Positions 1,403 through 29,379 of a stretch of 64,000 nucleotides of DNA are shown piece by piece; the stretch's first letter is position 1; every line of letters starts with the position of its first letter. The notes beneath the pieces are model-generated. The model had not been told where the DNA came from. It ran no database searches and saw nothing but the letters and a program-made list of their open reading frames with translations. This DNA is from an uncultured Victivallales bacterium. GTDB lineage: Bacteria > Verrucomicrobiota > Kiritimatiellia > UBA8416. The translations under genes and the position numbers were made by a program. Where the stretch lies: assembly GCA_964609395.1 (NCBI GenBank), contig CAZSRU010000004.1, forward strand, positions 6,263 through 70,262, in the 5' to 3' direction.

Positions 1403-1917
1403 GATGCCGCCTTTCCCGGCAGGATCCGCGCCGGTATGCCGACGGCGGTACAGCCGGGCGGCACATCGTCGAGCACGACGCTCATCGCCCCGATCACGGC
1501 CCCGCGTCCGATGCGGATCGGCCCCAGGATCTGGGCGTAGGCTCCGACGTTCACGTCGTCCTCCAGCACGGGCACGCCGCCACCATCGGTCTTGTTGCCG
1601 ATCGTGACGCCCTGGCGCAGCGTGCAGCCGGCACCGATGCGGGCATCCGTGTGGATGAAGATGTTGCCGAAATGATGGATGCGCAATCCCGGCCCGATCT
1701 CGCAGTGCTTGTTGAAGCTGATGCCCGTGAGGGTCTCGACGATGCGGAACAGGAACCAGTAGAGGCGGTCGTTGAACCGCCGACGCCAGCCCGGCGGACG
1801 CTGGTCGTTGCCCCGCCCGAAGCGATAGAGCCGGATCGCCCAGAGCGATTGCTCACGCTTGAAGGCGCGATCGGGATACCGCGCGCGGTCGGCCAGGTAT
1901 GCCTCGCGTTGATTCAT
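1399..1917 (-). CDS. hexapeptide-repeat acetyltransferase (serine O-acetyltransferase/WcaB-like)
   Basis: Table ORF 1399..2316 trimmed to internal ATG 1915-1917 (MNQREAYL...) which overlaps stop of upstream GT2 by ATGA; left-handed beta-helix hexapeptide repeats (GAGCTLRQGVTIGNK...VNVGAYAQILGPIRIGRGAVIGAMSVV). Confidence 0.75.
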   Translation of the reverse strand: MNQREAYLADRARYPDRAFKREQSLWAIRLYRFGRGNDQRPPGWRRRFNDRLYWFLFRIVETLTGISFNKHCEIGPGLRIHHFGNIFIHTDARIGAGCTLRQGVTIGNKTDGGGVPVLEDDVNVGAYAQILGPIRIGRGAVIGAMSVVLDDVPPGCTAVGIPARILPGKAAS

Positions 1918-2939: not shown

Positions 2940-4056
2940 CCATCCCCTCCTCTTCCGTGACCGGAGTTGCCCGTTGCCGGTAGTAGGCGCCCAGCAGCCC
3001 CGCGCGGGTGGTCATCCGCCGTGCATGCTCCTTCCAGCGGCGGGCTGTACGCCAGGCCCTGGTCCGCCAACCGGGACGATCATGGATCAGACGGAAATGC
3101 AGTACCGGACGGGCTCCGATATAGTCCTTGAACAATGTCAGATTGAGACGGGGCGACCCGCCGAAGTTGATGGAGAGAGGTGCGCCCCATTCCTGCCGCA
3201 TGGCGAGCGAGACCTTCCAGTAGAGCGCCGGGATCACCGTATGGGCCTCGGGATCCGCCTGGTAGGCGCAGCGCCACAGGTAGACCGTGCGGTCGTCACG
3301 GCTGAGCAGCGCGATAACCGCCGCCTTGAGTTCACCCTCGGCGGTTCTGGCGGTGAAGAGACGGCCAGTATCCCATGCGTGCAGCTCCTTCATCCGGCGG
3401 CGCAGGTCCGCATCCCAGCAAGGGAGCGGCACCCAGTCGAACTTGGTGATCAGTTGCCGGTAGAGGACCAGGAATTCATCCACAGCCTGCCCCCAGGTTT
3501 CAAAGCCGAACCGCAGCGTTTCCATTGATCGCCTGATCAGGCGACGCTTCTCGCGGTTCATGCGGTCCCAGACCTGGTCCGGATCATCCATGTCCCACAC
3601 ATGCGTGTATAGCGGCACCGCCGCCCACCCGGCATAGAGGAACGGGCGCACATCCGTCACGGCAGGATGCGTCTCGGCCTCGATGATGTCGATGAAGCCG
3701 GACTGGGCGGCAGCCAGCGCCTGCATGACATCGATGCGCTCGCGGGCGTGGTGGACGGAGCCGGACTCCAGTTCCGGGTGCAGGAAAGGACCGGCGTAGA
3801 AGAACTCGAAATAGGTTGAATAGCGGAATCCCGCGCGAGTCCGGTATGGCAACGCCCATGCACCACGCATGGTGCCATCGGTGCCGAAGACTGCCACACG
3901 GTGAAAACAGACGCCATAGGAATCCGTCCGCGCGATCATTTCCAGGCATGCACTGCGCAGGAAACTGTTGGCGGCGGGTGCTATCCCGACCAATGCGTCC
4001 CAGGCTGTGTCATGCACGGCGCTCACGGTCACGGACTGGCAGGAAGCCAGAATCAT
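2932..4056 (-). CDS. FemAB-family/GNAT-fold protein (type found in exosortase/PEP-CTERM-associated EPS loci)
   Basis: Table ORF 2932..5229 is over-extended (antisense to the kinase gene); plausible start ATG 4054-4056 preceded by GGAGGG; ~374 aa with FemAB-like length and motifs. Confidence 0.55.
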   Translation of the reverse strand: MILASCQSVTVSAVHDTAWDALVGIAPAANSFLRSACLEMIARTDSYGVCFHRVAVFGTDGTMRGAWALPYRTRAGFRYSTYFEFFYAGPFLHPELESGSVHHARERIDVMQALAAAQSGFIDIIEAETHPAVTDVRPFLYAGWAAVPLYTHVWDMDDPDQVWDRMNREKRRLIRRSMETLRFGFETWGQAVDEFLVLYRQLITKFDWVPLPCWDADLRRRMKELHAWDTGRLFTARTAEGELKAAVIALLSRDDRTVYLWRCAYQADPEAHTVIPALYWKVSLAMRQEWGAPLSINFGGSPRLNLTLFKDYIGARPVLHFRLIHDRPGWRTRAWRTARRWKEHARRMTTRAGLLGAYYRQRATPVTEEEGMDV

Positions 4057-4248: not shown

Positions 4249-5688
4249 ATGAGCAACGCAGTTTCCGGAGCAGGGATGGCGATTAGGAGCGACTTCAAGG
4301 AGGTCTGCGACGAGCGCTCCTGCCGCGTCCTGATGGATGTGCCGACGGTGGCCGTGCAGGGTTACCTCGCCGACGGGACCACCGTGTTCTGGAACCGCGC
4401 CTCGGAACGGTTTTACGGGTTTACGGCCGAGGAGGCCATCGGGCGCCCGCTGACCGACCTGATCATCCCCCCCGAGATGCACGACCATGCCAGGAAAGGC
4501 ATCCGGGAAATGGTCGAGACCGGCAAGGCGGTTCCGGCAGGGGAACTGATGCTGATGCGCAAGGACGGCTCGCGCATCCCGGTCTACTCCAGCCACACCG
4601 TGATCCGGATGGAGGGGGAGACGCCCCAGCTCTTCTGTCTCGATGTCGACCTGACCCGTTGCCGCCAGGCCGAGGAACGGCTCCGAACGATTGTCGATTG
4701 CCAGCTTGAGTTCGGGCACGACACCAGGGCCAACATCAACCGGCTGGTGACGATCTGCGGGCAGGAGATGGATGCCGCCTGCGCCCTCTACAACCGGCTT
4801 GACGAAGGGATGCTCTGCTCCATCGGGCAATGGCACACGCCCCCCGGCTTCCAGGATCGCAACAAGCCGGCAGGGCATATCTGCAACGACGTGATCCGGC
4901 AGGGCGGCGAAGAAGCGGTGGTTATCCGCAACCTGCAGCAATCCGACTACCGGACCACCGACCCGAACGTGGCCAGCTACGGCCTCCAGACCTATGTAGG
5001 CGTTCCCGTCAAGAGCCAGGGCGAGACGGTCGGGTCGCTCTGCGCGGTCTACCAGGTGGACAAGCCGCCGACGCGCGAGCAGACCGACTTCATCAGGCTG
5101 ATCGGCATGGCCATCGGGGTCGAGGAGGAGCGGCAGGAGGCACTGGACCTGAATGAGGCGATTGCAGGCATGCTCCAGTTGCTCCAAAGCCTGGTCGGCT
5201 GCGAGACCGAACTGAATTGGATCCCGCAAGACGGGCTGTGGCTGACGTACATCGATTCAGGACAGGTCGTGCAGATTCTGACCAATCTCTGCGTGAACGC
5301 CCGCGATGCCATCGGCGGCGGAGGTGGCCGCGTCGCGATCACGACCGCCAACGTCGTGCTGGACGAACCCTACTGCTGCACACACGAGCACTGCCGGGCC
5401 GGTGACTATATCAAGCTGACGGTCGGCGACAACGGGTGCGGGATACCGGCAGACGTTCTCGCCCATGTATTCGAACCCTTCTTCACGACCAAGCCGGCAG
5501 GCAAGGGTACCGGTCTCGGCCTGTCAACGGTCTACGGGATCATCAAGCAGAACAACGGTTGCATCACCCTCTCCAGCCGTCCGGGGGACGGGACCGTGGT
5601 CGATATCTACCTGCCGCGACATACCGGGTCCCTTCCGACCGGGGACGCGTCGGATTCGGCAGGCGGAGGGGCGGAGCCATGCCGGTGA
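4249..5688 (+). CDS. PAS-GAF sensor protein with HATPase_c (GHKL) domain but no recognisable H-box
   Basis: ATG 4249 preceded by AGAAGGA (alt. ATG 4219); PAS ([22 protein letters not shown]), GAF, then X-region directly followed by N/G1/G2 boxes ([25 protein letters not shown]); region homologous to the DHp helix-1/His of the paralog at 18096-20075 (VAHDFNNML) is absent. Confidence 0.7.
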
Positions 5689-8600
5689 GGATACGGGGAC
5701 TGACGGGAACAGCGGGACGTCGCGCCCGATGGCGCCAGATGCTGGTGGTCCTGCTGGCATTGACGGCGGCGGCAGGGGTGTTTATCGCCAGGACGATACA
5801 CCAGGTCGATCAGGCGATGCGCGACGAGTGGTGCCAGCGCACCGTGCAGGCGGCACACACGCTGGCAGGCGACACCGTCGAGGCAATCAACGCCGACAAG
5901 ACGGGCAAGCAGGACACGGAGGCCCGACTGCGGCTCGGCATCCGCCTGGCCTCGTTCCGTGCCGCCACTCCAGACTGGGGCTTCGCCTTCCTGCGGACCC
6001 GCCCGCCAACCGGGCGTCTCCTCGCCTCCGCAGGCACCGTACCCACCTGCATGCTGCTGGGCCGCCCGCTTGGAGAGCAGGCGGAAGCGGTCAAGGCGGC
6101 CAGCACCAGAGCGCTCGAGACGGGACATGGCGTGGTCATCGGTCCGTACACCATCGAAGCAGGACGTTTTGTCAGTGCATTCGCACCGGTACGCGAGGCT
6201 CCGGGAGGCGAGGTGGTCGCTATTCTCGTGATCGGGATCGACGCCTATCGCTGGAAACAGGAACTCGTGCAGCGCACGGCACAGCCCGTCATCTTCTCGC
6301 TCGCACTCCTGGGCGCGATCGTCACGCTGGTATCGAGCCATCTCGCCCGGGTCGGCATCCGGGATCGCGAGGCATTCCTGCGGACCACCATCAACGCGCT
6401 GGCACAGCCGTTCCTGGTGATCAATGCCGACACACACCAGGTCGAGGTGGCAAACGCGGCGGCAGGCGGCGACGCCGTGATCGGCCAGTCTTGCCACAGC
6501 ACCATCATGGGCCGGGAGGCTCCTTGCAGCGGCGAGCATATCCCCTGTCCGCTGGAGCGGCTGCGGCTGGAGCGGAAACCGGTCGTCGTCGAGCACACCG
6601 ACCTTGCGCAACCGGAGGCACCCCGGTATTCCGAGGTGCATGCCCACCCGATCCTCGACGGGCGCGGGAGGCTCGCGCATATCATCGAGCACCGTATCGA
6701 CATCACCGACCGCAAGCGGGCCGAGTTCGAACTGCTCCGGCAGACCCGGATGCAGGAAATCCTCACCTCGATTTCCGCGACCTACATCAACCTTCCGCCG
6801 GAACTGGCGGACACGGCCATCGAGCGTTCCCTTGGGGAGCTGGGCACCTTCGTCGGTGCCGAACGCGTCTACCTGTTCGACTATGACTTCGCGCAGCAGG
6901 TCTGCACCAATACCCATGAGTGGTGCGCCGATGGCATCGCCCCGCAGATCAACGAGCTTCAGGCCGTGCCGATCGCGATGGTCGAGGACTGGGTGGCAAC
7001 CCACCGGCAGGGGCGCGTCATGCTGATCGAGGACGTCTCGGCACTGCCACCGGACAACGGCGTACGGCAGATCCTCGAGCCACAGGGGATCAAGAGCCTG
7101 ATCGCCGTACCCCTGATGGATGGCGATGCCTGCCTCGGGTTTGTCGGGTTCGATTCGGTTCGACGGCATCATGCGTATACCGAGTCCGAACAACGGCTGC
7201 TGACCGTGTTCGCGCAGATGCTGGTCAATGTCCGCAAGCGGCGGGACATGGTGGCCGCGCTGCATCAGAGCCGCGAGGAGGCGGAAGCAGCCAACCAGGC
7301 AAAGAGCGCGTTCCTGGCTAACATGAGCCACGAGATCCGCACCCCGATGAACGGGGTGATCGGCATGACCGACCTGCTGCTGGATTCGGAATTAACGGCG
7401 GTCCAGCGGCGCTATGCCGAAACCGCAGTGGCCTCGGCGGAGTCGCTGCTGGCCTTGATCAACGATATCCTCGACTTCTCGAAGATCGAGGCCGGGAAGC
7501 TGGATCTGGAGTCGCTTGATTTCGACCTGCGGGATGTCATGGACGAGGCCGTCATGCCGCTGGCGCTGCGCGCACAGGGAAAGGGTGTGGAGTTCATCTG
7601 CGCGATCGCGCCCGATGTGCCGGCCCGCTTGCGCGGGGACCCGGTACGCTTGCGGCAGGTGCTGGTCAACCTGACGGGCAACGCCGTCAAATTCACAGAG
7701 AAGGGCGAAATCGCGGTCCAGGCGGAGTGGATCGGAGAGAGGGCGGTCACCGACCTGCCCTCGACAGCGCCCGATGCGGGAGGGGGAACCGGCAGGCCGG
7801 TCGAGATCCGTTTCTCCGTACGGGACACCGGCATCGGCATTCCGGACACCAAGATGGAGCACCTGTTCCAGAAGTTCAGCCAGGTGGACACCTCGACCAC
7901 GCGGCGCTACGGCGGCACCGGGTTGGGGCTGGTCATCGCCAAGCAGCTCGCCGAGATGATGGGTGGCCGCATCGGGGTGGATTCGGAACCCGGCAAGGGC
8001 TCCACCTTCTGGTTTACCGCCTGCTTCGAGAAGGCGGCGACGACCAATACGCCCAGTAAGCCGGCGGAGGACAGCCCGGCTACACTGCCGCACGCGCACA
8101 TCCTGATCGTCGACGACAACGCGACCAACCGGGAGGTGCTCTCCGCCCAGTTGCAGGCTTGGAGCATGAGGACAAAGAAGGCCGACGACGGTCCATCGGC
8201 CCTGGAGGTCATACGCCGGATGCATGCCGGCGGCGACCCGTTCCAGGCGGCGATCCTGGACATGCAGATGCCAGGCATGGACGGCATGGCACTGGCCCGC
8301 GTGGTGCAGGCGGATCCCGCGTATGCAGGTGTGAAGCTGATCCTGCTGACGTCCATCGGTTACCAGGGCAGCGCGGAGCAGGTTCGTCAGGCGGGGTTCT
8401 GCGCGTGGCTGACGAAACCGGCCCGCCAGTCTGACCTGTACAACAGCCTGGCCGAGGCTCTCACACCGGACAGGGCGGACGCCGGCACCCCGGTACCGGA
8501 AATGCCAGCCACTCCGGTTGCATTGCAGACAGGTGGCGGGCGCGTCCTGCTGGTGGAGGACAACCCGGTCAACCGCATGGTGGCGGAAACGATGCTTGAT

Positions 8601-8972
8601 CGTCTCGGGATCGGCCATGTCTCGGCGTCGGACGGCGCGGAAGCACTTGCCGAACTGGCCCGCACCCCCTGCGACCTGGTGCTTATGGACGTGCAGATGC
8701 CGGTCATGGACGGGCTCGAGGCGACACGCAGGATCAGGAGCCAGGAGGCGGAGAACAGAGGGCAGAGGGCTGAGGGCAGAGGGCAGGAGGTCGGAGGGCA
8801 GGAGACAGCCGGGGCGAAGCGTCTGCCGATCATCGCCATGACGGCTAACGCCTTCGCGGAAGACCGCGAACAGTGCATCGCGGCCGGGATGGACGATTAC
8901 ATGACCAAACCGGTTTCCTTCCACGCGCTGGCGGCAATGCTGGCGAAGTGGCTGCCCGGCAGCGCGTCTTAA
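5679..8972 (+). CDS. hybrid sensor histidine kinase (TM-periplasmic sensor-TM-PAS-GAF-HisKA-HATPase-REC-REC)
   Basis: Start ATG 5679 after GGAGGGGCGGAGCC, overlaps previous stop by 8 nt; H-box [17 protein letters not shown]; two receiver domains ([15 protein letters not shown]..., [14 protein letters not shown]...[13 protein letters not shown]). Confidence 0.85.
8752..8806 (+). repeat. intragenic tandem heptamer tract (AGAGGGC)n in second receiver domain of kinase 5679-8972
   Basis: gagaacAGAGGGCAGAGGGCTGAGGGCAGAGGGCAGGAGGTCGGAGGGCAGGAG encodes low-complexity insert [21 protein letters not shown] after RRIRSQEA. Confidence 0.6.
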
Positions 8973-8989
8973 CCGCCCCCTCAGAGAAA

Positions 8990-11698
8990 TCATGCCTTTA
9001 TCGCATAGCGGGCGGCTAAACCCGCGAGTGTCATTTGATCCTGGATCTGGTCGTGGGGGATGAGGAGGTAACGCCAAGGCTTGCCGCCGTTCTCCTTGGC
9101 GTGTGCCGTGGCGTGTTCGCACCATGTTGCGGCTGCATTGGCTTTGGCGATAACGGTTTCATCCGTCATCTCTTTTGACTGTTTTGGTTCGCAGAGCAGT
9201 TTCTCCGTCTGCGTCTCAACGACGAAATCAGGCTCGTAGGATTCGTCATGGCGAAAGTGAATCTGGAAGTCGCCCTTGGCGGGTTTAAACCACTTCAGAA
9301 CGGTGCCTTCATTCTCGAGGATCACCGCGAAACGACGTTCGGAGTCGGAGTCGAATTTCTGGATGGGGTAAAGGCATTTGCCAAAACTGCCGAATACCAT
9401 CGAGCCGATGTGGTTACGCTGGCCCTCGGGAACGGGAACGCGGAAATCACGTGTGTTCTCGTCTGCCGCAGCGGAGTAGTTGTTCGACCGGAGTGTACGG
9501 AAGCCTCTTGTCACGTGGGCCTCGTATTCACTCGCGGATTCGACAAAATGCTGTTGCATTTGAGAATGGATCAGGTTCGCGAGGGCCTGCTGGTGGAACT
9601 GGAGGACATTGATCACGTCGTCTTCCGTGGTCAAGTAAGATTGCAGGCGTGAAACGACCTGCCCTGCCAGCTTATACAGCAGGGCCGCGTGTTCGTCGTA
9701 ACTGACATCGTCGAAGTCGACCAGACCGCGAATCAGGTAGTCCTCTGGACGGTTTTCCATAACGATGCCGGTCCCATCCAGCAACCGATACCGCTGGTGC
9801 TCGTGCAGATGCTGGATCAGGATGTCCTGAGAGACCGGCTGGAGGTTGATATTCCTGACATCGAGGTTAAAGTCATTGTAGCCGCAAGAGACTTCACCTT
9901 TGGGAAGCACCACGATTTTGGGGATATCAATGGAGAGGTCGCAGAAAAGCGTCGTCGTGTCCTTGACGACCTTGGCGACATTCGTGATCTCGTAGACACC
10001 GGCTAATTCGCCTTGGGCCGGACGAACGATCTCCTGAACCTTCTGAACGATCTCCTGCTGAACGGCGGCATCATGGAGCTGATCGCTGCCCTTCAGGCGT
10101 TCGTACTGTTTGATGACTTGAAAGGTCGCCTTGGCAACCGACTGGTCCTCCGGCCTCTCGAAGAGCGTACGCTGCACTGCGGCCGGCTGGCCAAGGGCTG
10201 CGGGACGGGCAGGAACCATTCCACCGGAAAGGGCTTGCTCGAAGGCGCTCTTCACCTCTACGGCTTTGCGTCCGGCGTCGGGAATATCCCGACCGATCAC
10301 GACACCCGCCCGAATAATCGAGGTCGGATCGTTGGCGTGGTCCACGATCTCCTGGAACTTGTCGTGCGAAACGATGGTCAACCGGTCCACCGCCGGAACG
10401 CCTACGCGTTTCCCGTAGGGAAGACGCAAGCCACGCCCGATCGACTGTTCGACGAGAGTGCGCGAATTCGCTGCCCGGAGCGGCACGATCGTGTAGAGGT
10501 TCGTGACGTCCCAGCCTTCCTTGAGCATATTGACGTGGATGACGATCTCAACGGGATTATCCGGATGCTCGACGGTCAGAAGCTGCTGGACAACGTCATC
10601 CTTTTCCTCCCCGCGTATGTTGGAGTGGACTTGGATGACCTTGCCCTTATAGCGCCCCTCAAAGAACGCATCGCCTTCGATCAACTGTTGCAACGTGTTG
10701 GCGTGGGTGGTATCGGTTGCCACGACAAGCATGAACGGCTTGACAATGGGCTTGTCGTTATTGCGGGCGTAGATCTCCAGTTCGACCTTCGTGTTCTCAT
10801 GGATGCGCACGCCATCTTCCAATTTCACCTTTTCCAGCCCCTCGGGCGAGTAGGCGTTGGCATCGAAGTTCTCGCGGGTGGCGACAGCGGGCTCCTTTAC
10901 GAAACCGTCGTCCATTGCCGAAGAAAGCGGATAACTGTAGATGACGTTATTGAAAGGCACCGATCTGCCCCCGGTCTCCACCTGCGGCGTGGCAGTCAAC
11001 TCCAGTCCAAGAATAGGCTTGAGCTCGTTAATAGCGCGTACACCTGCGGTGGCGCGGTAACGGTGACTCTCATCCATGAGTACCACCAGATCTTCCAGGC
11101 CGGCGAGATAATCAAAGTAGCTTTCGCCGATGTACTCGCTTAGACGCTTGATCCGGGGAGCGTTCCCGCCACGCACCTCGCTGTTGATCTTTGAGATATT
11201 GAAAATATTGATGTGGACATCCTGTCCCCAGTCTGTCCCCGGCAACATGTCGGCACGACGCACGCCGCGACCGTCCTCGTAGGTGTCACCGGTCACGACA
11301 AGCGGGGGGTGGACGGCAAACTCACCGACCCCCTTGAAAACATATTTGGGCGTATTGGGTGTAAAATCGGCAATCAGCTTGTTATAGATTGTGAGATTGG
11401 GAGCCAGTACAAAGAAGTTGCGAATACCCTCTGACTGATAGAGGTAGGTTATGAACGCGCCCATGAGGCGCGTCTTTCCGACGCCCGTTGCCAAGGCGAA
11501 GCAAAGCGAAGGGAAATCCCGTTCAAACCCCTCGACCGAAGGGAACTCACTGCGGATCGTGTTCAATGCCGCGGCAGGATCGGCATCCTTGGACAAGTCG
11601 ACGATCTCGCATAAGCGGGCCAGAATTTCGAGAGAATCACGCTGCGGGGTGCGGAGACTCAGGCGATTGCTGATGGAGTTAATGTGCTGAAGCGCCAT
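8990..11698 (-). CDS. res: Type III restriction enzyme Res subunit
   Basis: 902 aa; helicase motif I (LATGVGKTRLMGAF) and II (VLMDESHR); C-terminal PD-ExK nuclease (YEPDFVVETQTEKLLCEPK); start 4 nt after mod stop. Confidence 0.85.
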   Translation of the reverse strand: MALQHINSISNRLSLRTPQRDSLEILARLCEIVDLSKDADPAAALNTIRSEFPSVEGFERDFPSLCFALATGVGKTRLMGAFITYLYQSEGIRNFFVLAPNLTIYNKLIADFTPNTPKYVFKGVGEFAVHPPLVVTGDTYEDGRGVRRADMLPGTDWGQDVHINIFNISKINSEVRGGNAPRIKRLSEYIGESYFDYLAGLEDLVVLMDESHRYRATAGVRAINELKPILGLELTATPQVETGGRSVPFNNVIYSYPLSSAMDDGFVKEPAVATRENFDANAYSPEGLEKVKLEDGVRIHENTKVELEIYARNNDKPIVKPFMLVVATDTTHANTLQQLIEGDAFFEGRYKGKVIQVHSNIRGEEKDDVVQQLLTVEHPDNPVEIVIHVNMLKEGWDVTNLYTIVPLRAANSRTLVEQSIGRGLRLPYGKRVGVPAVDRLTIVSHDKFQEIVDHANDPTSIIRAGVVIGRDIPDAGRKAVEVKSAFEQALSGGMVPARPAALGQPAAVQRTLFERPEDQSVAKATFQVIKQYERLKGSDQLHDAAVQQEIVQKVQEIVRPAQGELAGVYEITNVAKVVKDTTTLFCDLSIDIPKIVVLPKGEVSCGYNDFNLDVRNINLQPVSQDILIQHLHEHQRYRLLDGTGIVMENRPEDYLIRGLVDFDDVSYDEHAALLYKLAGQVVSRLQSYLTTEDDVINVLQFHQQALANLIHSQMQQHFVESASEYEAHVTRGFRTLRSNNYSAAADENTRDFRVPVPEGQRNHIGSMVFGSFGKCLYPIQKFDSDSERRFAVILENEGTVLKWFKPAKGDFQIHFRHDESYEPDFVVETQTEKLLCEPKQSKEMTDETVIAKANAAATWCEHATAHAKENGGKPWRYLLIPHDQIQDQMTLAGLAARYAIKA

Positions 11699-11700
11699 GA

Positions 11701-13485
11701 TTATTTATCTCCCGCAGGTTTGATGGTATCCATGTCGAAAAGTGTCGGGCCGGAATCCTTACCCTTGCCGAATTTCCGCGCCGGGCGCTTCGGCACAACA
11801 GAGGCGACGGAGGCTGCTGCTGGCAAGATTTCTGGCGCTTTTGGTAAGTTACTAATCTCCAGCGAATAATCGTCGTGCCCCCATTCGCACTTTTTCAGAA
11901 CCGCCTTGGGGATCTTCTTTACGGTTAAATTCTCAAACTGGCTGACATCGCACTTGAAGGCGGCACAGCAAACCAGAAGACTTCGATTCGGGCCGACGTC
12001 GTCGCTGAGTTTGATCAGCATCTCCTTGGTCATCATCTGCGTGGTCACATAGATGAAATCCTCCTCCGAGCTACGCCCCTGCTGCCAATATACATCAGGG
12101 TTCGGATCGAAAGTGAAGCCCTCCAGCTTGCACAACGCCTCGGCCAGCATGCCGGCATTGAAGGCGGGATTGATGACGGGGTTATCCCACTCGTCCTTGG
12201 CAATCAGAGACGGCCCAAGCCGGTAGTAGCGGAAGCCGCCGCCACCTTGCCAATTAACTGCATTGCTGATCCCGCCCTTATCCCCGCCGTCAATGACTTT
12301 CTGCAAGCGCGGAATGATGTGCGTGTGGCAATGCTCGCCCAGTTCAACCATGATCCACCGCCGCCCCATCTTATGGGCCACCGCGCCGGTGGTGCCGGAA
12401 CCCGCGAAAGAGTCGAGAACCCAGTCGCCGGGGTTGGATGACAACGAGAGAATGCGATGGACTAGTTTCTCAGGCTTTGGCGTTCCAAAGGGATCATCTT
12501 CGTTGAACGTCTTGGCCTCCTGCATTGCGATCCGATTTTCGCCGACCTCATCATAGTGCCAGGTTGTCATCGCAACGACGCCCTTGTCCTCAATCTCCGA
12601 GAGAAACCGCTTGATGCAGGGTTTGTTGCTGCCATCCTTGCCGAAGTACACGCGGTTGTCTGCCCTGAGCCGCTCGTATGAGGATTTCACATAGGCCCAT
12701 GCTCTGCCCTTTGCTGGCAGCGCAACTCTACCGGAAGGAGTGATGATCTCGTAGATATTGTCGCTGTGGCCGGTCTTTGCAAACTGCTTTCCTCGCTGCC
12801 CCGAAGAAAGACCAATTGTGAAGTCGCCAGGGAACCACGGGCCGCGCCCGTACGACTTGCCAGACTCATCAATGCCGTCGTGATCATCCGACTGTTTGTA
12901 AATTGCATTCTGTGCTTACGTCCGCTCCAGTTTCCCGGGGCGCCATAGCTCTTTGTTCTTGGCGAAGACCAAAATGTGATCGTGGCTCTCTGATAACCAC
13001 ACAGCATTGCTCTGAGGAGATGACTTCTTCCACCAGATCACGTTTGTGACGAAGTTGATGCGACCGAATATCTCGTCCATCAGAACCTTGCAATAGTGTC
13101 CCTCATTATCGTCGAGATTCACCCAGATTGATCCATCATCCGTTAGCAGCCGCCTCAGAATTTCAAGGCGGTCCCGCATCAGTGAAAGCCAAATCGAGTG
13201 TTCCACGCCGTCGTCATAGTGTGTGAATGCGGAACCCGTGTTGTAAGGCGGATCGATGTAGATGCACTTGATCTTGCCGGTGAACTCCTGTTCCAGCGCC
13301 TTGAGGGCGAGAAGGTTGTCGCCGAAGATCAGGCGATTATCGAAGAGATCGTGATTGGTCACGCGCTGGGCGGCGTGATAGGATTTCTCCGGTTCCTCGA
13401 CCAGGATGCGCGGTTCCAGTTGCGGCCGGTTCTCCTTGCCGATCCAGGTCAGTTCAAGCCGTGTGTTATTTTTTGCCATAATCAA
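11701..13485 (-). pseudogene. mod: Type III R-M Mod (N6-adenine/N4-cytosine beta-class methyltransferase) interrupted by one in-frame TAA
   Basis: Table ORFs 12916..13485 (DPPY motif IV: CIYIDPPYNTG) and 11701..12690 (motif I: VLDSFAGSGTTGAV) are in the same frame; the 225 nt between them translate without stops; only stop is TAA (tta on + strand) at 12916-12918; intact length would be ~594 aa. Confidence 0.75.
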
Positions 13486-13517
13486 TCCTTGGTCGTTGCG
13501 CGCGGAGGGGCGTGAGC

Positions 13518-16043
13518 CTATGTAGAGATTCCAATTGAGACAGGCACCTGAAGTTGAATACGAACGGGGGTGTAAAGATCGACTTTTGTTTCCGGTGTTT
13601 CAATCGAAACGATCAAGGCATAACGGGTTGTGCGATCCCACTTGCCTTTCTGGGGGCGTACGCGCCACCAACCAATGAGTGGCGTTATCACGATTAGGTT
13701 TGACTCGGCGAGCTCTGCTGCCGTCCCCGACCAGATATCCGAATGGATAGAACCTTTGTTGCGGGCCTGCCCAAGAAGCCAATGACTCGATGGGCTGTTG
13801 GTGCCCGGATGCCCGTTTTCCTCATCCCTGGCCGCATCATTAATGCGCCGCTCAAACTGCCCTCTATCCTCGGTGGGCGAATTCAGGTCAAAGCGGAGTC
13901 CATGGGAAGCATAACGGTAGCGGTCTTTCCATCCGACCTCGCCGGGACTCGGCTCGATGAAATAGGACAGCGTGACCCGCATACGGACAGTGGCATCCGG
14001 TGCCATCTGCTGCAAGGCTTCCTTTGGCCACGGCAACTCATAGAGATGCATGTCGCGAGTGCGGTAGCCACCGCTCTCCCTTTTATCGAACGGCTGGATT
14101 GCCTCTTGCGCGATAAGAGTCAGTCGGTTGCTGGCTGAATGCAGGGCCTTCTCAAGACTTGGAACCCCGTAGCCACAGGAACGCAACAGGCGTTTATAGG
14201 CCGTCTTGCTTTCGTCAGCGCAAAACTGCTGTTTGAGTGTATCGGTCCAGTCAGCGGAGTGGATCATCAGCCCGCGGACGGTTTCCGGCCAGAAATCAGG
14301 ATAGCGGACGCTGATCTGTGCGGCCATCCAAGCCGCTTGGGCGGTTGCGGCGCTGGTCATGCAAAACGGATAGAAATGTGCCTTTTGAGGATCGAAGAAG
14401 GTGGACAGCAATGACAAGTCGGCGCATTGGCTGATGAAGTTCGATGTCTGTTCCCGTGCCAGATTACCGCCTTCCAGGACAAGCTCTGGTTTAATGGGCC
14501 AACTGTCATTCCAAACCGTTGACGTTGTGCTAAACGGCGAGAGGCCGCCGCTTGGGGCAATGGGTGCATAACCGGACATACTGGGTTCACGAATCTCGTC
14601 GAGCTGTGTGAAAGCCCCGATGGTGAGAGCATTCCATGACTGAGCGGGATCGTGAACGGAATCCGTTTCTTGTGCGTCTGGGTAAGTGCCGCGGCCGTGT
14701 TCTTGCGAATTGCCGGCACTGACAATCAGCAAACGCCTGTGATCATCCTCCGCCCCCGAGCACAACTGATCCAGCGCTCCCGACCAAGACGAGGGGCGTC
14801 CCTGGTCGCGGTTGTCCGTCGTTGTCACAGCCATGCAGCCAATGCGTCGACGTTCGGGTGCTTGTATCTCGGCCTTGTAGATGGATTCTGCCGTGATGTG
14901 TCCCCATAGATGCGGGGCATTCCCTCCAGTTGGAGGGAGGATTTTGACGGACTCAAGGCAATGCGCCAGATTGACAGAACCCTTGCCAAGCATGAGTTCC
15001 TGCAAATCGTTGTATGCAGCGAGCCCCGCCATCAAGGTCCCGTGCTTATCGTGATCGTGTGTCCCCCAGGCTGCATCGAAACTGGCGCAATCGTCGGCGG
15101 ACAAGACGGGGGCCAGCAATGGATGACCGCGGTTGACGCCGGTATCGAGAATGCAAATAGACGTATCGGAATTCGGAACCACGTTGATTCTTTCGAGAAC
15201 GGATTCGACCCATTCGGCTTGATCCTTGTTATCGAGATCAAGCCAGAATGCAGCGGTTTCCTTGGCGCGACGATATTCCGCCACATCGTCGGATAATCGA
15301 CTAATGGACGCAAGCTGATCGCGGTTGACATGCACGAGCTTCACCGCCCTATCCGGGAACTTGATGCAGCCCGGTTTGCAATTAATTTGCTGGCTCGTGA
15401 GTAGGGTTTCAAACCGCTGGATGATGTCGTCACTGTCGGAGCTCAACCAGACTTCACACCATTCCGGGCTAGCGGCGGGGATTAAAGCCTTCTCATCCTG
15501 CCAAAAGGATTCAATTTCCAAGGCTTTACGAATACCGGAAATGCTTTCCAATAACACAGCGTGCTTAGGGTTATCCGATCTACTGTTCTCTTCTGTGGCG
15601 TACTGTTCGATTTTATTAAAGAAGGCGTCCTTCTTGCTGTGCGGGATAAAAATCGTGGCATAGGTAACCTTTTGCCCATCTTCTCCGGAAGATGGGCCGA
15701 CCGGTTCGCACCTGACGTTAAGCAGGCGCGTTCTATCAGCAATATCGCGAGGAACAAGATTCTCGAGGCTCTTGGTTACGAGTTGATACCCAGGCTCCCC
15801 TTTAATCTCGACAAAGACGCCATTTCGACCCGTATGGTGAACCACCTGCTCCTGCTTTGCCTCTGCCCATGCGGCAGCGAGCTGCTGTTTGAGAAAAGCA
15901 CTATGCCCGGCGCGATCGCGTGTGGGTACCGGGGGCGTCGTAACTTGAGATTGGCCGGGAGAGAATGTGCTCGTTTCGAATTGCTTGATTAACAAATGAG
16001 GGAGCTGGCTTTCCATCGCGACTATGCAACCTTCCGTCCACAC
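13518..16043 (-). CDS. subtilisin-like S8 serine peptidase, large cytoplasmic-type (IetS-like)
   Basis: 841 aa; S8 triad elements in D-H-S order: ICILDTGVNRGH, DKHGTLMAGLAAY, CMTSAATAQAAWMAA, plus oxyanion AGNS; no obvious signal peptide; overlaps upstream AAA ATPase gene by ~20 nt. Confidence 0.7.
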   Translation of the reverse strand: MWTEGCIVAMESQLPHLLIKQFETSTFSPGQSQVTTPPVPTRDRAGHSAFLKQQLAAAWAEAKQEQVVHHTGRNGVFVEIKGEPGYQLVTKSLENLVPRDIADRTRLLNVRCEPVGPSSGEDGQKVTYATIFIPHSKKDAFFNKIEQYATEENSRSDNPKHAVLLESISGIRKALEIESFWQDEKALIPAASPEWCEVWLSSDSDDIIQRFETLLTSQQINCKPGCIKFPDRAVKLVHVNRDQLASISRLSDDVAEYRRAKETAAFWLDLDNKDQAEWVESVLERINVVPNSDTSICILDTGVNRGHPLLAPVLSADDCASFDAAWGTHDHDKHGTLMAGLAAYNDLQELMLGKGSVNLAHCLESVKILPPTGGNAPHLWGHITAESIYKAEIQAPERRRIGCMAVTTTDNRDQGRPSSWSGALDQLCSGAEDDHRRLLIVSAGNSQEHGRGTYPDAQETDSVHDPAQSWNALTIGAFTQLDEIREPSMSGYAPIAPSGGLSPFSTTSTVWNDSWPIKPELVLEGGNLAREQTSNFISQCADLSLLSTFFDPQKAHFYPFCMTSAATAQAAWMAAQISVRYPDFWPETVRGLMIHSADWTDTLKQQFCADESKTAYKRLLRSCGYGVPSLEKALHSASNRLTLIAQEAIQPFDKRESGGYRTRDMHLYELPWPKEALQQMAPDATVRMRVTLSYFIEPSPGEVGWKDRYRYASHGLRFDLNSPTEDRGQFERRINDAARDEENGHPGTNSPSSHWLLGQARNKGSIHSDIWSGTAAELAESNLIVITPLIGWWRVRPQKGKWDRTTRYALIVSIETPETKVDLYTPVRIQLQVPVSIGIST

Positions 16044-16990
16044 GCATTTTGACGGTCCGCAATCGCTGCAATCAATTCACAAGCCTCGACATGCTTTTTA
16101 TCGCTAAGAACCACACTCTTAATCGCATCCCGGCAGGCATGGTCAATCTCTGCATGGCTCAAGCCGTTACAAGCGTCGATCACACGTTTCCATGAGAAGC
16201 GTGGCGCGATAAATGTACCCAGCACATTTTCAATCAAAGGTTTGACCTGATCGACTGATGGGCGCTCGTAATGCAGCACATCGTCGAAACGGCGGAACAA
16301 GGCATGGTCCAGCAAGCCGGGATTGTTTGTGGCGGCAATAATCAGGCTGTCTGATGTGTCCTGCTCGATGAATTGAAGAAAGGCATTTAGAACCCGCCGG
16401 ATTTCGCCGACGTCGTTATCGTGCGAGCGATCTCCGCCAATAGCATCGAACTCATCAAAGAGATAAACGCCATGAGCCTGCTGCATTAGATCGAATATCT
16501 GCCGAAGCTTAGCGCCCGTCTCCCCCATAAATTTAGTAACAAGGCGATCCACCTGGATGGTGTTCAGTGAAAGATTCAATTCCTTGGCCAAGACTTCCGC
16601 TGTCATGGTCTTGCCGGTTCCGGGAGGACCAACGAGCAGAATCTTGCGACGGTGAACCAATCCATGCTGCTTCAGCTTGTTCTGCTGCCGATATTCATGG
16701 ATGATTCGATCAAGCCGGGATCTGATGGTCGCCGGCACAACCATAGCCGAGATTGGCGTTAGAGGCTCCGTGGACAGGACCAGCCCTTTGAGATCAGCAG
16801 GGAAGCTAAGCAGCCGCGGACCCGCCTTCTTGCGTTCGGAGTCTATGATTTCGCGTAAATCGTGGGCCAAGGCGGCATGGCCCTGTCGAGCCTCCCCTGC
16901 GGCCAACTGCAATGAAACCGAGTAAAAGCGTTCGGCGTCATCACTGAAGTGCGACCGTATCAAAGACTTAAGTTGTTCGGCAGTAGCCAT
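16022..16990 (-). CDS. AAA family ATPase (IetA-like)
   Basis: 322 aa; Walker A LLVGPPGTGKTMTAEVLAKEL, Walker B VYLFDEFDAI; sits in AT-richer block directly upstream of S8 peptidase. Confidence 0.8.
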   Translation of the reverse strand: MATAEQLKSLIRSHFSDDAERFYSVSLQLAAGEARQGHAALAHDLREIIDSERKKAGPRLLSFPADLKGLVLSTEPLTPISAMVVPATIRSRLDRIIHEYRQQNKLKQHGLVHRRKILLVGPPGTGKTMTAEVLAKELNLSLNTIQVDRLVTKFMGETGAKLRQIFDLMQQAHGVYLFDEFDAIGGDRSHDNDVGEIRRVLNAFLQFIEQDTSDSLIIAATNNPGLLDHALFRRFDDVLHYERPSVDQVKPLIENVLGTFIAPRFSWKRVIDACNGLSHAEIDHACRDAIKSVVLSDKKHVEACELIAAIADRQNACGRKVA

Positions 16991-17111
16991 ATTAACCTCT
17001 CAATAAAACGTGGTCGTAGCTTAGCAGAAGCTGCGTTTAATTACATCACAAAACAGCTCTTGTCATAATTAGTAGGAAGCGAAACGATGCGCAATGCCCA
17101 CCCCTCAACGT

Positions 17112-18035
17112 TTACCCGCCACTCATGGAGGGTTCGCCGCCGTCCAGGCAGACGCGGTTACGGCCTTCCCTTTTCGCACGGTACAAGGCGGTGTCCGTTG
17201 CCAGGAACAACGTGTCGATGGTATCACCGTCGCGAACGGATCGGAGACCGATGCTGACCGTAATGGCAATATCCCCGGCCCGTGTCGATATCGGATTGTC
17301 CGCCACTATCATCCGAAGCCGTTCGAACAAAAGCCAGGCATCGTTGATCCCGGCGATGGCAATGACCAGGAACTCCTCGCCTCCGATCCGCCCGAAGTAG
17401 TCGTAATCCCGCAGGCCGCCTTCCAGCAGGCGAACCAACCCGCGCAGCGTCTCATCGCCAACCCCGTGACCGTATGTATCGTTGATTCTCTTGAAAAAAT
17501 CGATATCCAGAATGCCCACGGCCAGTCCCTGCCGGTGACGGGACTCGCGAGCAAGCTCGCGCGCAAGGGCTTTTTCAATCGCCCGGCGATTAAGGACACC
17601 CGTCAACGGGTCGTGCGAGGCTTCGTGCGCAAGTGCATCGCGCGTCCGGTATAGTTCTTCCTGCATCGCGATCAGGCGGCACCCCACTTCGACGCGGGCG
17701 CGTAACTCGCCGACGTCGAACGGTTTGGCCAGATAGTCGTCGGCCCCGGCCTCCAGCCCGGCGATGATGTCCGTCTTCCCGCTCTTGGAGGTCAGCATAA
17801 TCAGGTAGGGCGGCCTGTCGGTTTCCAGGGCGCGGACCCGGCGAATGACCTCCAACCCATCCATACCCGGCATCATCCAGTCGAGAATGGCTAGCCGGGG
17901 CGCATCCGCCTCCTGCAGCTTCTCCCACGCCGCAGAGCCATCAGTGACTTCCGTCACCTCGTGCCCGGCTTTCCCCAGGACAGCCGCCAGTATGGTTCGG
18001 CTGGTCAAATCGTCTTCAGCGATCAGTACACGCAT
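17112..18035 (-). CDS. response regulator with GGDEF diguanylate cyclase output (PleD/WspR-like)
   Basis: REC (VLIAEDDLTSRTIL...LDWMMPGMDG) + GGDEF with GGEEF active site (RIGGEEFLVIAIAG) and upstream RxxD-like region. Confidence 0.85.
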   Translation of the reverse strand: MRVLIAEDDLTSRTILAAVLGKAGHEVTEVTDGSAAWEKLQEADAPRLAILDWMMPGMDGLEVIRRVRALETDRPPYLIMLTSKSGKTDIIAGLEAGADDYLAKPFDVGELRARVEVGCRLIAMQEELYRTRDALAHEASHDPLTGVLNRRAIEKALARELARESRHRQGLAVGILDIDFFKRINDTYGHGVGDETLRGLVRLLEGGLRDYDYFGRIGGEEFLVIAIAGINDAWLLFERLRMIVADNPISTRAGDIAITVSIGLRSVRDGDTIDTLFLATDTALYRAKREGRNRVCLDGGEPSMSGG

Positions 18036-20137: not shown

Positions 20138-22936
20138 TTATTCGTAACTTTCCATCTTGTGCCGCAGGTGGTCAAAGGCCTCCACTAATGAGGTCACGTG
20201 TTCCCTGGCGGCATCCAGATCCCCTGCCCTGGCCGCCTGCTCGATCTCAACGGCGATGCCGCGCAGGGCTTCACCGCCGACGTTGGCTGAGGCACCCTTG
20301 ATGGTGTGGGCATGTCGCTCGGCACCCGTTGCGTCGCCTGACTTCAGGAACGCATCAAGAGCGCTGATCTGCCTGGGTAGGTCGTTCAGGAATCCGCGGA
20401 TAACCGTTGCGGCCAGATCCTCGTCATCCATCAGCCGCTCCAGCATACCCGCCCGGTCCCAGACCGAAGGAGAGACGGCAGACTGCAGACTACAGACTTC
20501 TGAAACTCCACTTTTGTCCTGCTGTTGACCGACTCCGGTCTGCAGTCTGCGGTCTGTAGTCTGCGGTCTCCCCCCGGTCTGTAGCCTGCGGTCTCCCCCC
20601 GCCCCACCCGGCAGCCATTTTGCCAGCACGGCCGCCAGTGCTTTCGGCGATATGGGCTTGGCAATGTAGTCGTCCATGCCGGCTTCCAGGCACATTTCGC
20701 GATCACCCTGCATGGCATGGGCGGTCATGGCGATGATGGGAATGCTCCGATTGCGGATTGCGGATTGCGGATTGCGGATTTGCCTTGAGGCTTCCAAGCC
20801 ATCCATTACGGGCATCTGGACATCCATCAGGACGAGGTCGTACGTTTCTCGTTCCAGCGCCGCCAGCGCCGCGACGCCGTTGCCAACCGTATCGGTTCGC
20901 AGGGCCAGCTTCCTGAGAATCCCCTCGGTCACGAGCCGGTTGACTGCGTTGTCCTCAACCACGAGGATGCGCACGTCGCGCAGGCTTGCCAACTCCATGG
21001 CGGAAGCTGCCGCCGTTTCGCTATCGTCCGCCCCTTCCACTGCCGAGCCTTGCTCCAGGCCGAGAGTGAACCAGAACGTCGTGCCCCGGCCTTCCTCCGA
21101 TTCCACCCCGATCTGCCCCCCCATCAGTTCCGTCAGTTGCCGGGCAATCGCCAGCCCCAGTCCCGTACCGCCGAACCGGCGCGTGCTGGAGGCGTCCACC
21201 TGACTGAACTTCCTGAACAGCAAGCCCTGCTTGTCCGCCGGAATCCCGATCCCCGTGTCGGTCACCGAGAAGCGAAGGCAAATGCCGCCTTCCGGTTCCG
21301 GGTCACCAGATGACTGCCGACTGCTGCCCGCTGACCGCTGACTGTCGATTTCTGCATCCTGCCCGCTGACTACTGACCGCTGACTACTGACCTCCGCCCC
21401 CCCCCGCTCCACCCGGACCGTGATTTCCCCCTTCTTCGTGAACTTCACCGCGTTGCCCACCAGATTCACCAGAACCTGCCGCAGCCGGAACGGGTCGCCA
21501 CTGAGCCGGTCCGGAACATCGGGATCGGCGGCGCAGATGAACGCGACACCTTTCCCCCGCGCCTGCAGCGCCAGTGGCGCCGCGACCTCGTCAAGCAGTT
21601 TGCGCAGGCTGAAATCGCAGCGATCCAGCTCCAGTTTTCCGGCCTCCATCCTGGATAAGTCGAGGATATCGCCGAGCAGGGCCAGAAGCGACTCGGCACT
21701 GTTCATGGCCGTCTCGGCAAAGCGCCGCTGCTCGTCGTTCAGCGCCGTATCGAGCAGCAGGCCGGTCATGCCGATGACCCCGTTCATGGGAGTGCGGATC
21801 TCGTGGCTCATGTTGGCCAGGAATTCGCTCTTGGCCCGGTTGGCCGCTTCAGCCTTGCCGGCCAGTGCCTGGGCCTGGGCCGTGGTTTCCTCAAGTTGAC
21901 GGTTGATCGCCAGCAGCCTCTGCTCGGCCTGCTTGCTCCTGGTGATATCGTGAAGAATGACCAGATAGCCTGTAAGCCGCTCCGTATCCGTTTGAAGCGG
22001 CAGGATGCACAAGTGCCAGGTTTCCACCCCCAGATGCACCTCCTGTTCGCCGATCTCCCCGGCGATGCCGCTGCCTGGCAGCCGGTTGAGACTCGACACC
22101 ATCCCCTCAAAATGCTGTTTGAATACCGGATTGCGGATGAGACGGGCACCCACGGGATTCGCGTTGACAATGTTGATCTGCCTGTCAAGAACGATCAGCG
22201 CGTCCGGCAGACGGTCAAACAAGGCATCCAGCGCCTGGGGAAAGACATCGAAAAGCCCCACGCGAAACACGCCATGGAACAACAGCAGCCCCATGACCAT
22301 GAACCCCACGGGGGTCAGGTCCAGGAACCCTCCGGGCTTGAACCCCATGCTGTAGGCCACATTGAGAGCAAAGGGAATCGCGATGCCGGCCAGGATGTAT
22401 CCGACCCGTCGGAGGTCCATCCCGCGCACCCGGAACAGCAGGCGGATCATCACCGCGATCGACGCCACCACGCATAGATAGGAATAGACCAGATGGACCC
22501 ACCAGAAAGGGCCCGGCGACAGCACCTGATGGGAGAAGCCGCCGAATTCCCCGAGGCTCACGCGGGCGTAGTACAGGGAATGCACGGGATTGGTGGCCAC
22601 CAGCGCAACCACCCCTGCCGGGATCAGGAAGAGCGCGATCACCCGTCCCCGCGTCAGGAGATGCCGTTTGCCCGCATGGGACAGGCAGAAGCCCAGCAGG
22701 CAGGCCGGCACGGAAGCCAGTCCGACATAGGCCACGGCGGTAGTCCACCGCATGCCATCCAGGCTCCGCAATCCCAGTTCAACGGAATATGCCAGCGACC
22801 AGATCGAAACCCCGCCCATGAGCGCCGCAATCCATGCCGCCGACGGCACAGCACCGCGCTGCCGCCAGGAGCGCAGGGCCAGCCAGAGGCTGGTCGCCCC
22901 GGCCAGCCAGATCGAAGGGATAGCGGCGTTCCACAT
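20138..22936 (-). CDS. hybrid sensor histidine kinase with N-terminal 7TM sensor, PAS, HisKA, HATPase, REC and C-terminal Hpt
   Basis: 932 aa; seven predicted TM helices at N-terminus; H-box [21 protein letters not shown]; REC ([13 protein letters not shown]...[13 protein letters not shown]); Hpt ([17 protein letters not shown]). Confidence 0.85.
20460..20590 (-). repeat. intragenic inverted + tandem repeat block with C6 tracts in REC-Hpt linker of kinase 20138-22936
   Basis: gacggcagactgcagactacagac ... gtctgcagtctgcggtctgtagtctgcggtctccccccggtctgtagcctgcggtctcccccc; encodes [22 protein letters not shown]. Confidence 0.6.
20750..20781 (-). repeat. coding-strand heptanucleotide tandem repeat (AATCCGC)x4 inside receiver domain
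   Basis: + strand gcggattgcggattgcggattgcggatttgcc; encodes [10 protein letters not shown] at the RQIR...PIIAMTA loop. Confidence 0.7.

Positions 22937-24067: not shown

Positions 24068-29379
<5,312 letters not shown>

Follow-up and report, generated by a model that had tools for sequence, protein, structure and literature searches.

A probable intact IetAS module beside a Type III restriction system with an interrupted methylase gene in an uncultured Victivallales bacterium

Identity of the two genes

The window, that is the whole stretch of 64,000 nucleotides analysed here, contains two adjacent genes that very probably (probability about 0.85) represent an intact IetAS, a known two-gene toxin-antitoxin and abortive-infection module directed against phages. 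The genes are co-oriented with ietA first, the catalytic residues of both products are intact, no export signal is indicated, and the pair is homologous to that of a Ti plasmid. The initial annotation had recognized the two-gene architecture as that of ietAS, and this assignment is borne out by HMM searches: the products match Pfam AAA (2.6e-30) and Peptidase_S8 (7.7e-63), respectively, and IetA and IetS models are their best defence profiles in PADLOC. In 80 other genomes, ietA was found directly upstream of ietS at each of the 77 loci with upstream DNA, which belong to many phyla. Comparison of three strains revealed no SNPs in ietA and 3-4 in ietS, all of them synonymous. The features of the locus are collected in Table 1.

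Table 1. Features of the ietAS locus, in window coordinates
Feature	Positions	Strand	Basis
Hybrid sensor kinase gene	5436-8972	+	Flanks block, convergent with block genes
Lower-GC block with four genes (ietA, ietS, mod, res)	8990-17050	.	Composition profile, GC3 by gene
Type III res, intact, 902-aa helicase-nuclease subunit	8990-11698	-	PADLOC REase_III, Pfam ResIII
Type III mod pseudogene, 592 aa if uninterrupted	11701-13479	-	Three-frame translation, PADLOC MTase_III halves
ietS, 832-aa predicted cytoplasmic S8 subtilase, putative toxin/effector	13518-16016	-	PADLOC IetS, Pfam Peptidase_S8, motifs
ietA, 322-aa classic-clade AAA+ ATPase, putative antitoxin/regulator	16022-16990	-	PADLOC IetA, Pfam AAA, motifs
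Intergenic region upstream of ietA, 121 nt, where the promoter of the ietAS(-mod-res) unit is presumed to lie	16991-17111	-	Sequence read directly
Response-regulator-GGDEF gene	17112-18035	-	Flanks block, co-oriented with block genes

The IetS protease

Counted from its first GTG, the subtilase reading frame spans 13518-16043 on the minus strand and encodes 841 residues, the size initially reported together with the DTG, HGT, TSAA and AGNS motifs. Reading frame and motifs are present, but the start has to be revised: since all 114 homologues start at the position of the ATG at 16016 (M-x-x-x-LPH), ietS encodes 832 residues and does not overlap ietA. The overlap originally proposed between the two genes is therefore replaced by a gap of 5 nt, from the ietA stop (16022) to the ietS ATG.

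In the numbering from this ATG, the catalytic motifs are DTG (D291), HGT (H325), SAGNS (N436) and MTSAA (S555), and neither the catalytic triad nor the oxyanion Asn varies among 115 sequences. IetS homologues number more than 5,000. An alpha/beta N-terminal region (residues 1-282) precedes the catalytic domain (283-617), which is followed by a conserved C-terminal region (about 620-832). The PADLOC IetS model PDLC02198 matches residues 197-824 (1.2e-35), and five further IetS models match as well; because this profile covers only that part of the protein, the first 200 residues or so are specific to the subfamily. Neither terminal region gave anything significant in the Pfam copy searched, which does not contain PF27160, a family listed for some homologues. 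A ferredoxin-like, propeptide-like module is located within the N-terminal region, at about residues 185-250, and the conserved segment 242-258 reads SDDIAEYRRAKETAAFW. Propeptides of the I9 type are N-terminal beta-alpha-beta-beta-alpha-beta modules that insert their C-terminal strand into the active-site cleft. Residues 1-282 modelled alone gave a low confidence (pLDDT 64), so that the fold matches of this region are suggestive only. A search of the PDB with the IetS family profile gave just marginal subtilisin matches, indicating that IetS has no close solved relative.

The N-terminus of IetS is hydrophilic and the highest 19-residue Kyte-Doolittle mean is 1.02; no signal peptide, transmembrane segment or hydrophobic stretch was indicated by this simple hydropathy test, which is not a dedicated signal-peptide predictor. 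A cytoplasmic location is thereby indicated, in agreement with the initial description of a cytoplasmic-type peptidase.

The IetA ATPase

The reading frame of the ATPase is as first described, with Walker A GPPGTGKT at residues 121-128 and Walker B LFDEFD at 177-182; in addition, a pore loop (K153-F-M-G-E-T158), sensor 1 (T221-N222) and arginine fingers (R233/R234) can be recognized. Among 73 IetA sequences, conservation of Walker A and B, of the pore loop in the form K-(F/Y)-M-G-E-T, of sensor 1 and of the arginine fingers is 95% or higher. The PADLOC IetA model PDLC02196 matches residues 2-315 at 9e-72, over profile positions 2-323 of 374; the best matches in the defence library are four IetA models (9e-72 to 2.8e-39), with TRIP13 well behind at 3e-14. 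Many generic P-loop families are matched weakly too, while neither CbbX nor FtsH, housekeeping families to which the ATPase might have belonged, is among the listed Pfam and PADLOC matches. The N-terminal region of about 100 residues gave nothing significant in the same Pfam copy. Among solved structures, the AAA domains of AFG2, p97 (D2), Cdc48 and VAT are the closest to IetA (1e-38 to 1e-32).

A ribosome-binding site, GAGAGG, is present 6 nt before the ietA ATG. We infer that the promoter of the ietAS(-mod-res) unit lies in the spacer upstream of ietA; a consensus scan found no minus-strand site there, and the counts of promoters and terminators scanned over the whole region were not above those of shuffled sequence.

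The adjacent Type III restriction genes

The two genes that follow ietS are, as had been noted, a co-oriented Type III mod-res; the gap, given as 30 nt, is of 38 nt, from the ietS stop to the most likely mod start, the ATG at 13479. The res gene begins 2 nt after the mod stop, and its product matches PADLOC REase_III (4.2e-242) and Pfam ResIII (3.3e-20), and EcoP15I Res weakly. Thus, a Res with an SF2 helicase is encoded directly downstream of mod, whereas a Mod in one intact polypeptide is not: a single in-frame TAA at 12918-12916, missed in the initial annotation, splits mod into reading frames of 187 and 329 residues. Three-frame translation revealed that the frame is otherwise open, and that the stop separates the DPPY catalytic motif from the target-recognition and AdoMet-binding (FAGSGTTG) parts. 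In PADLOC, one MTase_III model is matched by both halves, the first over positions 4-176 and the second over 266-559 of its 575, and the product is related to EcoP15I Mod (3.5e-32).

The stop is shared with two other assemblies (L001 and L002) at 99.8% identity, and it aligns with a Glu of the intact 553-residue homologue of locus L003, which makes a GAA to TAA change plausible; the related mod of another locus, L036, is intact as well. A metagenome scan for the intact codon, with N at the T of the TAA, gave 0 matches in a collection that apparently does not contain this organism. Because of the nonsense codon, and because Res needs Mod to find DNA, the restriction system is most likely inactive, and the recurrence of the same stop in the two closely similar assemblies suggests that it is probably dead.

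Composition and origin of the block

The four genes form a block that had been described as AT-richer than its surroundings, and indeed its GC content is 54.9%, against 63.1% in the rest of the window; likewise, the four genes have a GC3 of 0.58-0.70, compared to 0.73-0.80 for those on either side. The neighbours are the hybrid sensor kinase and the GGDEF regulator originally identified on its two sides. A search with PhnW gave, as best named match, a Verrucomicrobia MAG (77%), no decisive indication of host taxonomy. A related arrangement of ietAS with Type III mod-res is present in two Kiritimatiellia genomes, and the ietAS pair is patchily spread across phyla. Both the atypical GC content and this scattered distribution speak for the proposed horizontally acquired defence island, and the block was probably acquired horizontally; however, the usual traces of insertion were not recovered. 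No integrase or tRNA marks the block, no Rfam family matches the locus, and direct or inverted repeats at its flanks do not exceed the length of chance matches, none being convincing. Exact-protein look-ups of IetA and of the GGDEF protein gave only the same arrangement and no island-free strain, and a metagenome scan for relatives of the GGDEF protein gave matches of at most 56% identity, in which synteny is not conserved, and no empty site.

Relation to known systems

The founding IetAS is that of pTiC58, an Agrobacterium Ti plasmid (Yamamoto et al. 2009, cited in PMC13069673 and PMC8562856). On the Agrobacterium Ti plasmid used for comparison, as in the window, an AAA ATPase gene is tightly followed by an S8 peptidase gene, of 328 and 836 residues compared to 322 and 832, and homology extends over nearly the full length: the pTi partners, which are adjacent and annotated as “ATP-binding protein” and “S8 family peptidase”, share 49% identity with IetA over its full length (2e-105) and 37.9% with IetS over 98% of its length (2e-152). 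The plasmid homologues aligned are 49% (IetA) and 38-39% (IetS) identical. Unlike the window pair, which is chromosomal, has no DUF6088 gene and adjoins a Type III unit, the Ti pair is plasmid-borne and preceded by a DUF6088 gene.

Gao et al., in 2020, reportedly had ietAS among the anti-phage systems that they tested experimentally. Defence has been demonstrated for ietAS of Bacillus cereus m1293 (10.1101/2022.08.27.505566) and of Escherichia coli ECOR52 (10.1101/2022.08.21.504612). The likeness of the window pair to these tested systems is through the PADLOC IetA and IetS profiles and the intact catalytic motifs, direct alignments having been made to the plasmid homologues only. A Mycoplasma AAA-ATPase/subtilisin-like pair, TA132/133, is also chromosomal, with signs of horizontal transfer (PMC8562856); it resembles the window pair in gene layout, with the ATPase antitoxin upstream of the S8 toxin, but differs in size (353 and 757 residues).

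A helicase-dependent variant, ietHAS (Liu-DS4), has been described as well (PMC13069673). It shares with the window the ietA-ietS core and a large SF2-type helicase gene nearby, which in the window is the Type III res; however, ietHAS contains a SNF2/DrmD-like ietH in the operon, whereas here the response-regulator-GGDEF gene lies upstream of ietA and the only helicase nearby is the canonical Res. A true ietH-ietA-ietS arrangement is found in the related locus L036, where a DrmD-like helicase gene is located upstream of ietA.

Proposed mechanism

The analysis shows the identity, integrity and predicted cytoplasmic location of the pair, its strict gene pairing and its domain folds; together with published work, it is compatible with the following mode of action. 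IetS would be a cytoplasmic subtilisin-type protease acting as toxic effector, and IetA an AAA+ unfoldase of the classic clade, working as a hexamer and translocating substrate through its intact pore loop. In uninfected cells, ATP-driven IetA would hold IetS harmless, in a manner that we infer; a phage cue would end this restraint, and the freed IetS would cut cellular or phage proteins, so that growth stops and the infection is aborted. IetS may also have a brake of its own, in the N-terminal propeptide-like module just ahead of the catalytic domain, as the structural model suggests.

The assignment of the roles follows the literature, in which the protease is the toxin and the ATPase the antitoxin, defence depends critically on protease activity, and ietA mutants could not be built (PMC13069673). 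Deletion of the mycoplasma ATPase gene alone is lethal (PMC8562856), and the B. cereus m1293 system acts by abortive infection, its toxicity being triggered by the yosG gene of phage SPbeta (10.1101/2022.08.27.505566). Alternatively, IetA might be an activator that strips an inhibitory domain from IetS; this idea is disfavoured by the published lethality of ATPase loss.

Alternative interpretations

IetAS might be mainly an addiction module that stabilizes the acquired block, as on pTiC58, with a marginal anti-phage effect, and this would agree with the founding description as cited in PMC13069673 and PMC8562856, which is of a plasmid-stability toxin-antitoxin, with the occurrence of an IetS homologue in 460 plasmid records, 320 of them conjugative, and with the persistence of the block despite its decayed restriction system. 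We regard this reading as rather unlikely: an addiction module can at the same time abort infections, and tested members of the family do provide defence; furthermore, the strong link to restriction operons is a defence context, and no mark in the window qualifies the block as a mobile element in need of stabilization.

This link emerges from the neighbourhoods of ietAS. Restriction genes of Type I or Type III occur within five genes of 19 of the 76 loci inspected and of none of the 80 control loci (Fisher p ~1e-6), and when the neighbours of the 76 loci were clustered, no third gene was recurrent except Type I restriction genes and a YhcG/DUF1016 nuclease. Nine loci have the arrangement hsdM-hsdS-ietA-ietS-hsdR, a layout analogous to that of PrrC. 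PrrC, in the EcoprrI Type I restriction operon, is a latent suicide effector, an anticodon nuclease that the restriction complex itself restrains. IetAS could accordingly be a guard or backup of restriction, located in or near Type I and Type III operons, latent as long as the restriction complex is intact and firing when a phage attacks, inhibits or bypasses it; the four genes of the block would then be one unit, and the pair a working remnant after the loss of mod. In a weaker variant, the intact Res helicase would be kept as an IetH-like accessory.

Besides the neighbourhood counts, co-orientation and the short ietS-mod spacing fit such a unit; locus L036 has the same order and spacing, L003 has a similar block, and the Mod and Res homologues of the two are 59-75% identical to those of the window. 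The existence of ietHAS (PMC13069673) and the helicase gene of L036 point in the same direction, as does a published E. coli survey, which lists “RM III and ietAS” among the non-randomly co-localizing pairs; the co-localization itself is thus already published and not new. Nevertheless, coupling to restriction seems improbable. With the seeds used, 57 of the 76 loci have no restriction neighbour, plasmid copies of ietAS stand alone between IS elements, and ietAS cloned alone is toxic/antitoxic and protective (PMC13069673, 10.1101/2022.08.27.505566, PMC8562856). Many kinds of defence gene nest in restriction operons, so the clustering may reflect shared islands only; in the window itself, the pair is intact next to an interrupted mod, which indicates that it persists without a working restriction partner. 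IetS differs from PrrC in having its own ATPase partner, and PrrC is held by the restriction complex. We know of no physical or functional link between IetS and restriction proteins.

Finally, chance proximity of a housekeeping AAA protein to a subtilase that is secreted or degradative is an exceedingly improbable explanation, even though either domain is widespread and the AAA domain has weak matches to many generic P-loop families. It is contradicted by the specific IetA and IetS profiles as best matches, the invariant pairing across phyla, the lack of an indicated signal peptide on IetS, a gene composition atypical for the host, and the distance from any solved subtilase (best 5e-4).

Implications

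The IetAS assignment is of minor importance in itself, as standard defence finders would call the locus ietAS. Its modest value lies in being a clean natural case, in which ietAS is intact and under purifying selection beside a restriction system that has no methylase; the integrity of the pair after loss of the neighbouring methylase argues that it works alone. The putative propeptide-like brake of IetS is directly testable. The location of a quarter of the sampled ietAS loci in or beside restriction operons provides a concrete lead to the trigger and mechanism of IetAS.

Assignment of the gene pair to IetAS

Translation of the minus strand recovered both reading frames of the initial annotation at the positions and lengths proposed, together with all the motifs quoted for them: GPPGTGKT and LFDEFD in the ATPase, and DTG, HGT, SAGNS and MTSAA in the peptidase. 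The overlap described between the two genes was instead abandoned; homologues (21, then 114 aligned) all start at the position of ATG 16016, with the pattern M-x-x-x-LPH, and thus ietS encodes 832 aa and begins 5 nt past the ietA stop codon.

Features of the defence block and its flanks in the window
Feature	Position	Strand	Description
Hybrid sensor kinase gene	5436-8972	+	Converges on res, 17 nt between stop codons
res	8990-11698	-	Intact, canonical Type III Res; PADLOC 4.2e-242
mod	11701-13479	-	592 codons; otherwise open frame, one in-frame TAA
ietS, longest frame	13518-16043	-	841 aa counted from first GTG
ietS, revised start	ATG 16016	-	832 aa; homologue alignment
ietA	16022-16990	-	322 aa; reading frame
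Response-regulator-GGDEF gene	17112-18035	-	Flank of the block

In the PADLOC defence library, the ATPase matched four IetA models (best 9e-72, spanning almost the whole length) and the peptidase six IetS models (best 1.2e-35), while the families that follow score far weaker; Pfam returned AAA (2.6e-30) and Peptidase_S8 (7.7e-63), respectively, and no other family for either protein. IetAS was first defined on Ti plasmids, as cited in passages of PMC13069673 and PMC8562856. On an Agrobacterium tumefaciens pTi, the gene for a 328-aa ATP-binding protein, 49% identical to the window IetA from end to end, precedes that of an 836-aa S8 peptidase whose identity to the window IetS is 37.9% across 98% of the query. 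Among 72,556 plasmids searched by translation, 460 records hold an IetS homologue, and Agrobacterium accounts for 54 of these. A secreted subtilase and a housekeeping ATPase were the alternatives to be considered: IetS has neither a hydrophobic N-terminus nor a membrane segment, and the IetA models lead the profile matches of its partner, so that neither alternative is favored. The original observation and its interpretation are essentially right.

Conservation and pairing

IetS has more than 5,400 relatives in the protein database; the best 120 are all about 830 aa long, with 56-75% identity, and derive from Desulfobulbaceae, Chloroflexota, Margulisiibacteriota, Riflebacteria, Erysipelotrichia and others, a similarity across distant taxa of the sort commonly seen when a module spreads horizontally. 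Searching with the family alignment recovered 80 genome loci, and an IetA homologue (47-75% identity) lies directly upstream of IetS in all 77 that include upstream DNA. Residues D291, H325, N436 and S555 are invariant in the IetS alignment, and the IetA motifs (Walker A, pore loop K-[F/Y]-M-G-E-T, Walker B, sensor-1 TN and RRFDD arginine-finger) are at least 95% conserved among 73 sequences. Two other assemblies of the same organism, from a JGI metagenome and a Logan run, are 99.8% identical to the window; they show no substitutions in ietA and three to four in ietS, all synonymous. In three surveyed loci IetS occupies two reading frames, of about 200 and 620 aa (L024 5042-7560, L025 8731-11211, L046 10001-12800), possibly pseudogenes or assembly frameshifts.

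Proposed mechanism

Published work assigns the toxin role to the protease and the antitoxin role to the ATPase; defence requires protease activity, ietA mutants could not be constructed, and the anti-phage mechanism is described as unknown (PMC13069673). Defence is abortive, and one phage gene renders the system toxic (10.1101/2022.08.27.505566); in a minimal mycoplasma, loss of the ATPase gene alone is lethal (PMC8562856). As judged from its sequence, IetA is a member of the classic AAA clade with the translocating pore loop kept, and among solved structures it comes closest to the unfoldases AFG2, p97 (D2), Cdc48 and VAT. The N-terminal region of IetS, modelled alone, gave much lower confidence than within the full protein, although its alignment was also far shallower (24 sequences vs 115). 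We prefer a model in which a propeptide-like module and an ATP-dependent IetA hexamer would hold IetS inactive, some phage product or downstream effect of infection would lift the restraint, and proteolysis by the freed IetS would abort infection; the domain assignments come from the data, while all further steps are inferred.

Composition and flanks of the block

The block at 8990-17050, placed between a hybrid sensor kinase and a GGDEF gene as initially described, is indeed AT-richer (54.9% GC vs 63.1% for the remainder of the window); GC3 is 0.58 in ietA, 0.60 in ietS, 0.69 in mod and 0.70 in res, against 0.73-0.80 in the adjoining signalling genes. Its reading as a horizontally acquired island agrees with this composition and with the phyletic pattern, on which it rests, since the borders showed no tRNA, integrase or repeat and the relatives searched yielded no empty site. 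The flanking PhnW has its best match, at 77% identity, in a Verrucomicrobia MAG protein.

A 15-nt unit, GAGGGCAGAGGGCAG, is repeated three times in tandem at 8758-8801, close to the 3′-end of the sensor kinase gene. Two hybrid histidine kinase genes share, at 20612-21854 and 24109-25786, stretches of about 800 and 350 bp with about 90% identity, a recent paralogous duplication inside the signalling gene cluster. About 25 kb from the island, a 426-aa ORF (42000-43280, +) weakly matches the MADS AAA ATPase MAD3 (3.9e-26; 92 bits vs a cut-off of 420), and could be another defence-related ATPase or a generic AAA protein.

The adjoining Type III genes

The Type III system first described beside the pair stands for res, but mod is interrupted by a single TAA (12918-12916), 3′ of the DPPY motif and 5′ of the target-recognition and FAGSGTTG regions. 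The product is related to EcoP15I Mod, and its halves match opposite ends of one Type III methyltransferase profile. The stop aligns with a Glu of an intact homologue, making a GAA-to-TAA change plausible, and splits mod in both other assemblies of the organism. Type III Res is unable to recognise DNA without Mod; with mod broken, the restriction system is most likely inactive. Inter-strain substitutions, about half of them non-synonymous, are concentrated in two short patches (res 10121-10322 and 5′ mod 13330-13405), the rest of the 19 kb being almost invariant, which suggests recombination or strain mixing in the assemblies rather than steady decay.

Association with restriction systems

In two other Kiritimatiellia genomes (loci L003 and L036), ietA-ietS is followed by intact mod (553 and 580 aa) and res, homologous to those of the window (59-75% identity); one also has the window's 38-nt spacing between ietS and mod. 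The window mod and res abut, whereas L003 has between them a 382-aa YhcG/DUF1016 PD-(D/E)XK nuclease gene (6183-7331) and L036, in the same place, a 398-aa ORF (9182-10378) that is its presumptive counterpart. In L036 a gene for a DrmD-like SNF2 helicase (971-3958) also precedes ietA, an order that is the published ietHAS layout (PMC13069673), and the window-homologous mod-res lies downstream of ietS (7525-10737). The arrangement in the window follows a known pattern, since "RM III and ietAS" is among the non-randomly co-localising pairs of an E. coli genome survey (10.1101/2022.08.21.504612).

Type I genes occur within five genes of the pair in 15 of 76 loci, nine in the order hsdM-hsdS-ietA-ietS-hsdR; Type III genes are present in a further four. 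The pair lies inside a Type I operon, usually in the interval from hsdS to hsdR, in L004, L005, L010, L016, L022, L024, L025, L041 and L050, and partly so in L028, L029, L006, L053, L056 and L076; in L016, the candidate defence gene PDC-S11 shares the hsdS-hsdR gap. Type I operons with defence genes nested inside them are a familiar theme; our literature search found no paper naming ietAS with hsdR in this sense. With the same seeds, no restriction genes were found in 80 loci around RR-GGDEF genes (Fisher p ~1e-6), a control from other taxa and with half as much DNA. Plasmid copies of ietAS lie alone, between IS elements.

The pair adds a member to a known system, its neighbourhood is of a known kind, and loss of the methylase in the adjacent restriction system is an unreported detail. 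That IetAS is functionally tied to restriction systems is unlikely; such a possible tie is nonetheless the sole lead of wider value, and it is testable.
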